Below, one piece after another: positions 3,152-10,365 of a stretch of 38,438 bases of DNA. The notes beneath the pieces were generated by a model. It ran no database searches, was not told where the DNA came from, and saw only the letters and a program-made list of their open reading frames with translations. The translations under genes were made by a program, and so were the position numbers. The first letter of the stretch is position 1. Every line of letters starts with the position of its first letter. Source of the stretch: an uncultured Clostridia bacterium (GTDB lineage Bacteria > Bacillota > Clostridia > Lachnospirales > Lachnospiraceae); the NCBI GenBank assembly GCA_947304065.1, contig CAMZAI010000001.1, forward strand, positions 1-38,438, in the 5' to 3' direction.

Positions 3152-3224
3152 GGGCTTTTAGCTCAGCTGGGAGAGCGCCAGGTTCGCAATCTGGAGGTCA
3201 GGGGTTCGATCCCCCTAAGGTCCA
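3152..3224 (+). tRNA. tRNA-Ala (anticodon CGC)
   Basis: Hand-folded cloverleaf: acceptor GGGCTTT/AAGGTCC with the G3:U70 alanine identity pair. D arm GCTC/GAGC, anticodon stem CCAGG/TCTGG with loop TTCGCAA, T arm AGGGG-TTCGATC-CCCCT. CCA is not encoded. Confidence 0.93.
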
Positions 3225-7178: not shown

Positions 7179-8114
7179 TCAGGCCTCTGTGAAGAGCGCG
7201 GTTGAATAGTAACGGTCTCCGCTGTCAGGCAGCAGCGCTACGATAACCTTGCCCTTGTTCTCGGGGCGCTTTGCGAGTGTGATCGCGCCGAACAGAGCAG
7301 CGCCCGAGGAAATACCTACCGAGATGCCCTCCTTCTTTGCGAGGAGCTTAGCGGTTTCGAACGCGTCCTGATTTGAAGCCCTGAATACTTCGTCGTAAAC
7401 CTTGGTATTGAGTACGTCGGGAACGAAACCTGCGCCGATACCCTGGATCTTGTGGGCGCCGCTGCGGCCCTCGGAGAGAACGGGTGAATCATCGGGCTCC
7501 AATGCCACAACCTTTACATTGGGGTTCTGGGACTTGAGATATTCGCCGGTGCCTGTCACCGTTCCGCCGGTACCTACGCCTGCGATGAAAATATCTACCT
7601 TGCCGTCGGTGTCCTTCCAGATCTCGGGACCCGTGGTGGCTCTGTGAATCGCGGGATTGGCGGGGTTAACGAACTGGCCGGGGATAAAGCTGTTCGGGAT
7701 CTCCTTCGCGAGTTCCTCTGCCTTTGCGATGGCGCCCTTCATGCCCTTTGCGCCCTCGGTAAGTACGAGCTCTGCGCCGTATGCCTTAAGAATGTTTCTT
7801 CTTTCAACGCTCATGGTCTCGGGCATGGTCAGGATGATCCTGTAGCCCTTGGCTGCCGCGATCGAAGCGAGTCCGATGCCCGTATTGCCGGATGTGGGCT
7901 CAATGATGACGGAGCCTTCCTTGAGCAGGCCCTTCTGCTCGGCATCCTCGATCATGGCCTTTGCGATACGGTCCTTAACGCTTCCCGCGGGATTAAAATA
8001 CTCGAGCTTTACGAGCACGGTGGCTTCGAGCCCCAGCGCCTTCTCGATGTTTGTTACCTCAACCAGAGGGGTGTTTCCGATAAGTCCCAGTGTTCCTTTG
8101 TAAATGTTTGACAT
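7179..8114 (-). CDS. cysK: Cysteine synthase A (O-acetylserine sulfhydrylase)
   Basis: Hallmarks [17 protein letters not shown] (PLP lysine) and [10 protein letters not shown]. 311 aa. Confidence 0.95.
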
Positions 8115-8159: not shown

Positions 8160-9440
8160 TCAGACTGCCGCAAATCCTTTCTCGAGATCCGCGATGATAT
8201 CGTCGATGTGCTCGGTGCCGATCGAAAGACGGATGGTGTTGCGGTTGATGCCCTGGTCCTTGAGCTCATCGTCGTTAAGCTGCGAATGTGTGGTCGATGC
8301 GGGATGGATAACCAGGCTCTTAACATCCGCTACATTTGCGAGCAGAGAGAAGATCTGCAGTGCGTCGATGAATCTCCATGCCTCGTCCTGGCCGCCCTTG
8401 ATATCGAAGGTGAATATCGAAGCGCCTCCGTTCGGGAAATACTTCTCGTACAGAGCGTGATCGGGATGATCGGGCAGTGAAGGATGGTTTACCTTTTCTA
8501 CCTTGGGATGGTTCTTCAGGAATTCAACGACTTTTTTGGTGTTCTCGGCATGGCGCTCGAGTCTTAAGGACAGTGTCTCCACGCCCTGCAGGAGCAGGAA
8601 TGCGTTGAAGGGTGAAATGGTGGCGCCGGTGTCGCGGAGCAGGATCGCGCGGATGAATGTAACGAACGCTGCGGGGCCAACGACATCATAGAACGAAACG
8701 CCGTGATAGCTGGGATTGGGAGCCGCGATGTTCGGATATTTTCCGGAAGCCTTCCAGTTGAACTTGCCCGACTCAACGATGATGCCGCCGAGGGTGGTTC
8801 CGTGTCCGCCGATGAACTTGGTAGCGGAATGAACTACGATGTCAGCGCCGTGCTCGATGGGCCTGATCAGATAAGGAGTACCGAATGTATTGTCCACAAC
8901 TACGGGCAGGCCGTACTTATGAGCGATAGCGGCGATCGCGTCGATGTCCGGGATATCGCTGTTGGGATTGCCGAGGGTCTCGAGATATACGGCTCTGGTG
9001 TCATCCTTGATCGCAGCCTCAACTTCCGCGAGATTGTGCGCGTCAACGAATGTGGTGGTGATGCCGTACTGGGGAAGTGTGTGCGCGAGCAGGTTGTAAC
9101 TGCCGCCGTAGATGGTCTTCTGGGCTACGATGTGGCCGCCGTTGGCCGCAAGAGCCTCAATGGTGTATGTGATCGCAGCCGCGCCCGATGCCAGCGCGAG
9201 AGCGGCGCTGCCGCCTTCGAGAGCCGCGAGTCTCTTTTCGAGAACGTCCTGAGTGGAGTTGGTGAGTCTTCCGTAGATGTTTCCCGCGTCAGCGAGTCCG
9301 AAGCGGTCGGCTGCGTGCTTGCTGTTGTGGAATACATAGGAAGTGGTCTGGTAGATCGGAACCGCGCGTGCGTCCGTAGCGGGGTCTGCCTGTTCCTGTC
9401 CAACGTGTAACTGAAGGGTTTCAAATTTGTAGTTGCTCAT
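8160..9440 (-). CDS. metY: O-acetylhomoserine (thiol)-lyase / sulfhydrylase
   Basis: The N-terminus [32 protein letters not shown] and [11 protein letters not shown] (PLP lysine) are typical of MetY/CysD. The start is the internal ATG (codon 28 of the ORF-track entry), preceded by AAAGGAG. Confidence 0.93.
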
Positions 9441-9479
9441 AATCTTTATTCTCCTTTTATTTTGATTTATAATGTAGTC

Positions 9480-9636
9480 ATCTCGCGAACTCTGTTCGCT
9501 CGATGTACGTTTGCTCGGCACTCAGCCGCACTTCGTGCGTCTGCCGTTCGTATCGGTGCAATCACAAGCCTGCGGCTCGTGATTGTACCGATATCGTCCG
9601 GCACTGCTCCGCAGGCTGAGTGCGCTCGCTTATCGC
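9480..9636 (-). promoter_or_regulatory. Structured 5' leader element, copy B, between the attenuator terminator and metY
   Basis: On the minus strand: GCGATAAGCGA (9636-9626) directly after the U-run. A 104-nt branched hairpin is closed by CACTCAGCC/GGCTGAGTG (9519-9622). A 3' block CATCGAGCGAACAGAGTTCGCGAGAT lies at 9505-9480. It is collinear with copy A at 82-169. Confidence 0.4.
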
Positions 9637-9638
9637 GC

Positions 9639-9672
9639 AAAAAGCCCGGGAGCTTATGCTTTACTCCCGGGC
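9639..9672 (-). terminator. Intrinsic terminator inside the metY leader (attenuator)
   Basis: Minus-strand GCCCGGGAG (9672-9664), 11-nt loop, CTCCCGGGC (9652-9644), then U5 (9643-9639). It sits about 200 nt upstream of the metY start. Confidence 0.7.
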
Positions 9673-9700
9673 AAATGGCTTACAATATGCTGATGCAGTA

Positions 9701-9820
9701 TTATTGTTTTTTATCGGGGCGTGTGGATGCACAGTCGGACGCCCCGGCCATTTCTGATGCCCGGGAGATGCGCATTCGACAACACATGACGATATTGGTT
9801 ACGATTGCTGATCTGTTCAT
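9701..9820 (-). CDS. Candidate 39-codon leader peptide MNRSAIVTNIVMCCRMRISRASEMAGASDCASTRPDKKQ
   Basis: ATG at 9820, 7 nt after AAGGAGG (9834-9828). Codons 12-16 are Met-Cys-Cys-Arg-Met. The ORF contains the upstream arm of an antiterminator. It is too short for the ORF track, so I translated it by hand. Confidence 0.5.
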   Translation of the reverse strand: MNRSAIVTNIVMCCRMRISRASEMAGASDCASTRPDKKQ

Positions 9821-9854
9821 CACGACGCCTCCTTCTTTCAAATAAGTTAATCGT

Positions 9855-9883
9855 AATATAACACTACCCACCTACTATGTCAA
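9855..9883 (-). promoter_or_regulatory. Putative sigma-A promoter of the metY-cysK operon
   Basis: Minus strand TTGACA (9883-9878), 17 nt, TATATT (9860-9855). The -35 lies inside the inverted repeat CACCTA-N9-TAGGTG (9869-9889). Confidence 0.55.
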
Positions 9884-9909
9884 TAGGTGATTTTAAAAAA
9901 TTTTCCCGG

Positions 9910-9939
9910 TTGAATTACCCTATTACCCTGAGGTATAAT
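9910..9939 (+). promoter_or_regulatory. Putative promoter of the Rrf2 regulator gene
   Basis: TTGAAT (9910-9915), 18 nt, TATAAT (9934-9939). The spacer contains the direct repeat TACCCTAT-TACCCT. Confidence 0.45.
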
Positions 9940-9963
9940 AGGTAAATAGGAGGCGTTGATATT

Positions 9964-10365
9964 ATGATTTCTACGAGAGGAAGATATGCGATCAGAGTGA
10001 TGATCGACCTGGCTGAAAACGACAACGGCAGTTATATCCCCTTAAAGGATATCGCTGCCAGACAGGGTATTTCCAAAAAATACCTTGAGATAATAGTTAA
10101 GGATATGGTGGCGGGCGGACTGCTCGTCGGAGCCAGCGGAAAGGGCGGCGGCTACAAGCTCTGCCGCAAGCCTGAGGAATATACGATAGGAGAGGTCATC
10201 GAGCTGATGGAAGGCACGATGGCGAGTGTGGCATGCCTCGAAGCCAATGCCGCGCCCTGCCCGAAGGCGTCCGAATGCCGCACGATCGCGCTCTGGGCCG
10301 AGTACTATAAGCTTACTCAGGATTTCTTTAACGGCAAGCACCTGAGCGATCTGGTCAGGAAATAA
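9964..10365 (+). CDS. Rrf2 family transcriptional regulator with a three-Cys putative Fe-S ligand set
   Basis: The N-terminus MISTRGRYAIRVMIDLA plus a winged helix is typical of Rrf2. Cys pattern C-x8-C-x5-C (VACLEANAAPCPKASEC). RBS AGGAGG. Confidence 0.92.
   Translation: MISTRGRYAIRVMIDLAENDNGSYIPLKDIAARQGISKKYLEIIVKDMVAGGLLVGASGKGGGYKLCRKPEEYTIGEVIELMEGTMASVACLEANAAPCPKASECRTIALWAEYYKLTQDFFNGKHLSDLVRK

Follow-up and report, generated by a model that had tools for sequence, protein, structure and literature searches.

A putative leader-peptide attenuator for methionine and cysteine upstream of metY-cysK in Lachnospiraceae

The metY-cysK locus and its leader

The metY-cysK operon of an uncultured bacterium of the Lachnospiraceae (assembly GCA_947304065.1, contig CAMZAI010000001.1) lies on a stretch of 38,438 nucleotides, hereafter the window, and is preceded by a leader with a short open reading frame (ORF) and three RNA arms that can pair in two alternative ways. 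Operon and leader are read from the minus strand. The first regulated gene encodes a metY-type O-acetylhomoserine sulfhydrylase (8160 to 9440; TIGR01326, 629 bits) whose true start is the ATG at 9440, preceded by a Shine-Dalgarno (SD) sequence, AAGGAG, at 9456-9451. The second operon gene is cysK, encoding cysteine synthase A (7179 to 8114; TIGR01139, 459 bits), and the two matches support the gene assignment made earlier in a first-pass annotation of the window. This annotation had proposed that the leader is a ribosome-mediated attenuator responding to cysteine and methionine. The observation behind the proposal is real and, judged from sequence, its interpretation is essentially right; a corrected point concerning the ribosome at the stop codon is discussed below. 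Not described earlier were an invariant CGA-AUG codon pair, a conserved operator over the -35 box and a divergent Rrf2 gene.

Transcription of the leader is predicted to start near 9848 from a sigma-70-type promoter, TTGACA-17-TATATT (9855 to 9883), which carries a TG extension, scores 11/12 matches and was also aligned in the loci of relatives. It is followed by the SD sequence AAGGAGG (9828 to 9834), located 7 nt 5' of the ATG at 9820 of an ORF of 39 codons plus TAA (9701 to 9820; stop codon at 9703-9701), encoding MNRSAIVTNIVMCCRMRISRASEMAGASDCASTRPDKKQ. All three features occupy the positions originally assigned to them, and the same is true for the run of Met-Cys-Cys-Arg-Met at codons 12-16 of the minus-strand frame. 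These sensor codons, AUG-UGU-UGU-CGA-AUG (Met12 Cys13 Cys14 Arg15 Met16; 9773 to 9787), end with CGA-AUG (9778-9773), which is the invariant core of the family described below. An exact look-up of the window peptide MNRSAIVTNIVMCCRMRISRASEMAGASDCASTRPDKKQ found it not to be on record; a homologous peptide (P0059) differs from it at 2 residues and has the same synteny.

The three arms and the U5 tract were confirmed. Arm 1 (9747 to 9767) forms the 5' strand of the antiterminator: its first part, CUCCCGGGC (9767-9759), pairs with 9672-9664, and its second part, AAAUGGC (9753-9747), pairs with 9679-9673. Both partners belong to arm 2 (GCCAUUUGCCCGGGAG, 9664 to 9679), a shared strand which pairs either with arm 1 in the antiterminator or with arm 3 in the terminator. 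Arm 3, GCUCCCGGGC, together with U5 (9639 to 9653) represents the 3' half of the terminator and its U-tract. Inverted repeats without mismatch link arm 1 (9767-9758) to arm 2 (9673-9664) over 10 nt and arm 2 (9672-9664) to arm 3 (9652-9644) over 9 nt; arm 3 in turn repeats part of arm 1 exactly and in direct orientation. The terminator hairpin (9673-9639) was calculated at -20 kcal/mol, with a 10-bp GC-rich stem followed by U5. Also present is the previously noted hairpin GGGGCG...CGCCCC inside the ORF (9716 to 9745), which is enclosed by the antiterminator in the minimum-energy fold and may serve as spacer, pause element or relay.

Upon folding, the 196-nt leader was more stable than all of 200 shuffled sequences (z = -3.7), and the minimum-energy fold of a longer transcript was the antiterminator of arms 1 and 2 around the GGGGCG/CGCCCC hairpin. 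The Cys codons were unpaired in these folds, and the switch strand paired with the terminator arm, not with the SD sequence of metY. That the leader goes beyond chance is demonstrated mainly by its conservation in other genomes.

Conservation and distribution of the leader family

Relatives were collected by a search with the MetY protein, taking one genome per species, which yielded 80 loci (L001-L080), mostly from rumen and gut Lachnospiraceae, Oscillospiraceae and Treponema. As the loci were chosen by the MetY protein, the leaders were sampled independently of their own sequence. Of the 76 loci whose upstream DNA was long enough, about 45 contained a small ORF with Arg-Met beside Cys or Met codons. 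Three forms were distinguished. The form of the window (within clade 1) reads ...M[M/C]CC-RM-xx-SRA-xx-MAG..., the form of Oscillospiraceae and Faecalibacterium reads LLxxNFR[F/C]G-RM-xx-SR[A/T]-xx-MAG, and the third, found in Treponema and other short leaders, keeps CGA-AUG and is devoid of the CCCGGG arms. Clade 2 and Treponema share LLRxNFRxGRM, a 12-residue motif conserved across two phyla. The short ORFs (L004, L012, L031, L037 and L056, the Treponema loci L010, L027, L046 and L079, and L039) end with ...CGA-AUG-UGA or ...CGA-AUG-UGU.., and L039 has two leaders in tandem. Neither CCCGGG arms nor an obvious terminator were found in the short and Treponema leaders; the Treponema forms have a small hairpin directly 3' of the short leader ORF. 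These arm-less forms suggest that the CGA-AUG core is usable with other output platforms.

The distribution was further determined by database searches. A profile search of 5.8 billion proteins returned 34 small 'hypothetical' proteins with no Pfam domain, including one Faecalibacterium-like peptide cluster on 597 contigs; an exhaustive HMMER search of 1.84 billion representatives returned 113 clusters at 50% identity, and a scan of metagenomes with a DNA pattern recovered 61 true leaders among chance matches. MetY was 85-93% identical in metagenome-assembled genomes assigned to Lachnospiraceae, Oscillospiraceae, Selenomonadaceae, Anaerovoracaceae and Treponema, among them the isolate T. zioleckii kT3. 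Such identity across differing families suggests that metY has spread laterally along with the cassette of promoter and leader.

The first-pass annotation had named conservation of the small ORF, its Cys and Met codons and the arms as a check on its proposal, and all three are conserved in the relatives: the ORF is in frame in 30/30 cases, codons -4 to -1, directly in front of arm 1, are rich in Cys and Met, and the arms are kept by compensatory changes. An SD-linked ATG was present in 30 of the 32 arm-bearing leaders and was in frame with CGA-AUG in each of these; by the SD pattern used, the remaining two have no SD-linked start. The distance from start codon to CGA took seven values, 33, 36, 39, 42, 45, 48 and 54 nt, and the confinement of length changes to multiples of three indicates that the leader ORF is translated. 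Upstream of CGAAUG only coding capacity is conserved, neither sequence nor structure. Arg and Met were the sole invariant residues in peptide alignments, with the Arg of Ser-Arg-Ala being nearly invariant. Within the NFRxG motif the codons vary synonymously (AAT/AAC, TTC/TTT, CGT/CGC/CGA, GGA/GGG/GGT), so that selection acts on this part as peptide.

The codon content of the leaders is biased toward the two sulfur amino acids. The fraction of Cys plus Met at codons -4 to -1 relative to the invariant Arg was 0.38, 0.60, 0.67 and 0.60, followed by the invariant Met at +1, and whole leader peptides consist of 10% Cys and 9.3% Met. The Arg itself is encoded by CGA in 41 of 42 species-level leaders, whereas other Arg positions of the same ORFs use all six codons. 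The codon following CGA in leader ORFs was ATG in 49, TGT in 18 and another codon in 4 instances, thus Met or Cys in 67/71. Ten ORFs end with CGA-UGU-stop and four with CGA-AUG-UGA. Downstream of the core, extra CGA-Met/Cys dicodons were in frame in 46/55 cases, as opposed to 26/106 for other CGA trinucleotides, and this frame bias argues that the CGA-Met/Cys signal is read as codons. AUG and arm 1 are always 5 nt apart, and no other spacing is constant. The ORF of the window ends with AAA-CAA-TAA (9701-9709) where many relatives have CGA-UGU-UGA/UAG (Arg-Cys-stop); this second, terminal CGA-Cys site is lost in the window and in its 97%-identical strains (L214-L216).

Covariation was determined from an alignment of 32 species (A4). 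In helix 1 of the antiterminator 96.5% of cells were paired and 5/9 pairs had changed on both sides, for example to CUUCCGGGC/GCCCGGAAG in L047 and to CUCCCGGAC/GUCCGGGAG in L038 and L050; when the partner was slid by one to three columns as a control, pairing dropped to 24-49%. The terminator helix was paired in 84% with 7/10 pairs changed on both sides. Antiterminator helix 2 (AAAUGGC:GCCAUUU) was less regular (58% paired) with clear covariation in L005, and the internal hairpin (74% of cells paired) showed weak covariation across species. RNAalifold, run without any hint, returned the pairing of arms 1 and 2 as the consensus, and a hairpin with U-tract lies 3' of the ORF in 32 of the 33 relatives that have the arms, the exception being L022 with a weak U-tract. 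At the nucleotide level, CGAAUG, CUCCCGGGC and GCCAUUUGCCCGGGAG are conserved. Two further ideas were not retained. CAUUUG within arm 2 was considered as a partner of CGAAUG, but L005 covaries AUUUGGC with GCCAAAU, favouring AAAUGGC:GCCAUUU, and no conserved complement of CGAAUG was found. Compensation between ORF tail and stop-to-terminator length, which would hold the distance between arms 1 and 2, was not significant (r = -0.17).

Behind the leaders lie metY, genes for MetQ/NlpA lipoproteins and metNI, and genes of polar amino-acid ABC transporters that encode SBP_bac_3 binding proteins and permeases. Further leaders precede an ECF S component, an operon of a lipoprotein gene and cysK, and a pair of metB/mccB-like and cysK-like genes. 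For the two peptide clusters inspected first, the gene that follows encoded a Cys_Met_Meta_PP enzyme in 10/10 places shown, and the other neighbours differed between the clusters. Classical attenuators match their regulatory codons to the controlled pathway. The mean number of Met codons among the five codons before the Arg was 2.0 for metQ/metNI (n=10), 1.15 for metY (n=27) and 0.0 for the ABC-transporter leaders (n=10, about six independent lineages). The Cys count before the Arg was near 2 in all gene classes, a value to be read with the search pattern in mind, which had fixed one Cys codon.

Between terminator and metY SD sequence the window carries an extremely stable branched hairpin of about 110 nt (9515 to 9623, minus strand; z = -9.1). 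It is part of the leader transcript, lies outside the conserved family, and is also present in the 97%-identical strains from rumen metagenomes; Rfam gave no match, and homologs were found neither in species-level relatives nor at other places in the window. The hairpin may be an inserted palindromic element or an mRNA-stabilising structure. Just upstream of the ribosome-binding site of metY an 8-nt unit, ATGACTAC (about 9473-9480, minus strand), occurs once in the window and in L214 and as three tandem copies in strains L215 and L216 (columns 415-430 of alignment A6). Elsewhere in the window, a tRNA gene (3152-3224, plus strand) was the sole Rfam match at the gathering threshold.

Ribosome position, proposed mechanism and alternative explanations

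To relate ribosome position to folding, each of 33 leaders was cut just before arm 3, which represents the decision state, and a ribosome footprint was slid along the ORF. These transcripts replaced equilibrium folding of full leaders with ribosome masks, which was uninformative for a kinetic switch because the terminator wins in many sequences under any mask. With no ribosome, or with the A site no further than the CGA codon, the pairing of arms 1 and 2 was the minimum-energy fold in nearly all leaders (8/8 pairs in the window). The antiterminator was partly lost with the A site on the invariant AUG, abolished in nearly all 33 leaders with the A site at +2 to about +12, and returned from +13 to the stop codon. 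Thus, the Met/Cys run provides the last stall positions that spare arm 1. The masked folding agrees with the earlier claim that a stall at the Cys codons leaves arm 1 free. However, it contradicts the claim that full translation to the stop codon masks arm 1, which was occluded only when the ribosome stood some 2-12 codons past Arg15 and was free at the stop.

Sequence comparison establishes the ORF with its frame and codon bias, both alternative helices, the fixed spacing and the association with the downstream genes. All comparative tests that were run support the proposal, and on this basis the leader is likely a ribosome-mediated transcription attenuator reporting the supply of methionine and cysteine for translation. 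Transcription would start at the conserved promoter and the 39-codon ORF would be translated. If Met-tRNA or Cys-tRNA were scarce, the ribosome would wait at AUG12, UGU13, UGU14 or AUG16 and leave arm 1 free; a failure of initiation with fMet-tRNA would load no ribosome and leave arm 1 free likewise. Free arm 1 would then capture the newly transcribed arm 2, no terminator would form, and the polymerase would continue into metY-cysK. If both tRNAs were charged, the ribosome would occupy arm 1 with its A site at about codons +2 to +12, arm 2 would pair with arm 3, and transcription would end at the U-tract. We infer that stalling occurs at the Met/Cys codons and that the lead ribosome follows about 100 nt behind the polymerase, and so is on arm 1 as arm 2 emerges. 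When CGA occupies the P site and AUG the A site, arm 1 would start at about +12, the mRNA entrance of the ribosome. As arm 1 begins exactly 5 nt after CGA-AUG, the entrance would abut arm 1 without melting it.

The invariant CGA may add to this arrangement. CGA is decoded by inosine via a poor I:A wobble; its decoding in E. coli was reportedly addressed by Curran in 1995, and the like is said of CGA codon pairs in yeast. We tentatively suggest that a P-site CGA delays decoding of the codon that follows and thereby sharpens a single Met or Cys codon as a sensor. With similar caution, CGA-AUG positioned 5 nt before a switch helix and preceded by Met/Cys codons or LLRxNFRxGRM could possibly constitute a new programmed stalling module. 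Such a module may let a single Met or Cys codon respond sensitively to charged tRNA or to a sulfur metabolite, with the sensitivity stemming from I:A wobble at the P-site CGA plus the nascent chain, and may define a Met/Cys regulon ('ribulon') across Lachnospiraceae, Oscillospiraceae/Faecalibacterium and Treponema. It may also work with the polymerase far ahead of the ribosome, as is said to be the case in Bacillus subtilis from work by Johnson et al. that reportedly appeared in Nature in 2020.

Several observations weigh against the attenuator. With AUG16 in the A site, the assumed footprint covers the first bases of arm 1 and 0-5 of the 8 pairs remain. Once it has reached the stop codon, the ribosome is 45 nt past arm 1 and masks neither arm 1 nor arm 2, and the antiterminator is still the preferred fold. 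As arm 1 is free again at this point, termination under plentiful supply needs more than structure. Presumably, it would involve the lag of about 100 nt that places the ribosome on arm 1, a queue of ribosomes, or a local hairpin, the last route being weakly supported: the local hairpin of arm 1 with CCGGGG, a candidate anti-antiterminator, was paired in 81% and showed little covariation. Moreover, in many clade-2 leaders (LLRxNFRxGRM...) Cys codons are missing, which leaves the AUG of Arg-Met as the single sensor codon. A lone hungry codon is a weak sensor, and the conserved 12-residue peptide points to an effect of the nascent chain. Finally, the short and Treponema forms keep CGA-AUG without the arms. 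In a relay model that was also considered, the ribosome on reaching the stop codon would release CCGGGG for pairing with arm 1 as an anti-antiterminator. This model was not adopted: the helices are moderately kept but covary weakly, the CGCCCC strand is in most relatives hardly within reach of the terminating ribosome, and the pairing of arms 1 and 2 wins energetically.

The absence of Cys codons and the presence of only one Met codon in some leaders also favour a metabolite-sensing arrest peptide, where the ...Arg-Met chain would stall at a fixed site in response to methionine, S-adenosylmethionine (SAM), homocysteine or cysteine, in the way TnaC arrests with tryptophan and SpeFL with ornithine. 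Arrest by the ligand at or just past Arg-Met would cover arm 1 and lead to termination, and the operon would be read without ligand. Such logic of end-product-induced arrest suits a leader whose default without ribosome is the antiterminator and in which positions +2 to +12 block it. Arg-Met is invariant at a fixed distance to arm 1, and the 12-residue motif is shared by Oscillospiraceae and Treponema with synonymously varying codons. However, residues before Arg-Met are variable in clade 1, which includes the window, except for Met and Cys, and their Met content is matched to the gene downstream, for which a ligand pocket would have no need. Furthermore, the Arg is fixed as CGA and nearly always followed by an in-frame Met or Cys codon, a signal at the level of decoding and not of the peptide, and no ligand is known to fit the proposal. 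We regard arrest as unlikely, yet it is a serious alternative, chiefly for clade 2. The two mechanisms can also be combined, with the nascent chain sensitising the ribosome to a hungry codon.

A second layer of control is suggested by the promoter itself. An operator-like palindrome, CCTATTGACATAGTAGG, covers the -35 box (9871 to 9887, minus strand), with one exact match within the window compared to 0.02 expected by chance; its pattern form is CCTATTGACAtaGTAGG. The exact operator pattern occurred in 60 of 210 fetched loci, before metY and metQ leaders and before isc-like genes situated upstream. A related palindrome at 9914-9947 coincides with the promoter region of a divergent gene for an Rrf2-family regulator (9964 to 10365, plus strand; TIGR00738, 109 bits), which scores under the cut-offs for IscR and CymR. 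Its product has three Cys residues in an IscR-like arrangement, C-x7-C-x5-C. The palindrome over the -35 box is probably the site of an Rrf2-type repressor, with the divergent product as a candidate for the protein that binds it, and operator and gene together suggest transcription-factor (repressor) control related to sulfur or Fe-S clusters in addition to the leader. Leaderless relatives (L007, L025, L068, L002, L006, L020, L034 and L044) have other conserved inverted repeats upstream of metY, e.g., GTTATAGG..CTATAAC and TTATCACCnnnGATAA, which resemble transcription-factor boxes and indicate that metY is under differing control systems among neighbouring species.

This arrangement raises the question whether the repressor is solely responsible for sulfur control and the leader contains a constitutive terminator. 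The ORF would then either encode a genuine small protein rich in Cys or serve as a translation-coupled stabiliser, the arms having no role beyond the tuning of basal read-through. The operator CCTATTGACAnnGTAGG lies over the -35 box in most loci, the window as well as close relatives have a divergently oriented Rrf2 gene, and L007, L008 and L025 have the operator without a leader. However, loci of the Faecalibacterium type combine leader and metY, and the genes called within their 4-kb flanks include no Rrf2 gene. Fixed CGA-AUG spacing, compensated alternative helices and gene-matched Met codons would be unexpected for a passive terminator, and beyond Arg-Met and the residues encoded by the arms the peptide is not conserved like a protein. 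Control by the repressor alone is therefore quite improbable.

The weakest explanation, an element acting purely as RNA (a riboswitch, or a leader that binds a protein or tRNA) with an incidental ORF, appears very improbable: CGAAUG, CUCCCGGGC and GCCAUUUGCCCGGGAG are indeed conserved as nucleotides and the controlled genes are of types usually under S-box or T-box control in Firmicutes, but there is no Rfam family match even at E<=10, SD and ATG are in frame in 30/30 leaders with lengths shifting by multiples of 3, extra CGA-Met/Cys motifs are in frame in 46/55 cases, only coding capacity is conserved 5' of CGAAUG, and the robust helices are the two switch alternatives with no conserved multi-helix aptamer.

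Comparison with known systems

Riboswitches and T-boxes are the textbook regulators of methionine and cysteine genes in Firmicutes, where leader-peptide attenuation is considered rare, and no established Met/Cys leader-peptide attenuator is known in this group. The first-pass annotation had called such an element unusual for Firmicutes, which is in line with the searches. Rfam yielded no S-box, T-box or other cis-regulator in the window at the gathering threshold, in the region 9300-10000 at E<=10, or in 20 related loci. No description of the Met/Cys leader element was found in the literature searched, which left most subscription journals uncovered, so that absence is not proof; within the same literature, nothing relevant turned up for Met-codon leaders, ribosome-mediated methionine attenuation in Clostridia or leader peptides of O-acetylhomoserine genes. 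The leader thus appears to be a widespread family that was previously undescribed.

If the proposed mechanism holds, a translated leader would replace riboswitch and T-box devices in many abundant gut and rumen Clostridia and also in rumen Treponema, and it would govern biosynthesis and uptake genes alike. The family would offer a directly testable case of ribosomal sensing of Met and Cys and a natural experiment on whether a P-site CGA slows bacterial decoding. It could also serve as a marker for annotating sulfur amino-acid regulons in metagenomes. Its small ORFs are currently annotated as 'hypothetical protein' or uncalled.

The leader resembles the trp, his, leu, thr, ilv and pheA attenuators in that an SD-led short ORF carries codons of its own pathway, the 5' strand of the terminator has an alternative upstream partner, and the position of the ribosome would choose the fold. 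Unlike these enterobacterial attenuators, the leader of the window would sense Met and Cys, has three arms instead of four segments, with arms 1 and 2 about 90-100 nt apart, and has the invariant CGA-AUG 5 nt from arm 1. Its predicted default without ribosome is the antiterminator, whereas the default of trp is termination, and its stop codon is far from arms 1 and 2 so that a terminating ribosome masks neither, whereas the ribosome at the trp stop codon covers segment 2.

S-box and T-box elements usually control such genes in Firmicutes; the 1998 work of Grundy and Henkin is cited in PMC1262725. The leader shares with the S-box (SAM-I) and with T-boxes for Met or Cys the controlled genes (metY, metQ/metNI, cysteine genes) and the choice between terminator and antiterminator as output. 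It differs in having no aptamer, specifier or T-box sequence, with a translated ORF as the putative sensor, and cmscan was negative for the window leader and for 20 related loci. With TnaC, SpeFL and plant CGS1 MTO1, which responds to SAM, the clade-2 leaders share a nascent peptide, LLRxNFRxGRM, that ends at a fixed site and is coupled to a downstream decision. However, the clade of the window keeps only M/C-C-R-M, and the identity of the CGA codon is conserved, which arrest peptides do not need.

Leader ORFs with Cys codons have been predicted in Actinobacteria (PMC1262725). Polycysteine-encoding leaderless short ORFs of mycobacteria were shown to be translational, cysteine-responsive attenuators in which the Cys tract pairs with a downstream SD sequence and no terminator is involved, and the authors considered uORF-mediated attenuation for cysteine to be previously undescribed (bioRxiv 10.1101/834739). 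Similar to these, Cys codons of the leader would sense via ribosome occupancy in front of several operons, forming a regulon without a protein regulator. The ORF of the window differs by its own SD sequence, the output through an intrinsic terminator, its Met codons and the Arg(CGA)-Met core, and there is no sequence relationship. Closer in design is uORFC-8-2 upstream of cysS in Rhodobacterales, a predicted ribosome-mediated attenuator with a terminator and U-run (PMC8632094). Both have tandem Cys codons, located near codons 14-15 in uORFC-8-2, followed by a terminator with U-run. However, uORFC-8-2 belongs to Alphaproteobacteria, is restricted to cysS, has its Cys codons inside the first stem, and lacks Met codons, CGA-AUG and a regulon of transport and biosynthesis genes; the window leader had matched nothing in Rfam. 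Compared with all these systems, the leader is distinguished by its putative sensing of both Met and Cys in Firmicutes and Treponema, its three arms, its default-on fold, its CGA-AUG at fixed spacing and its use across a whole regulon.

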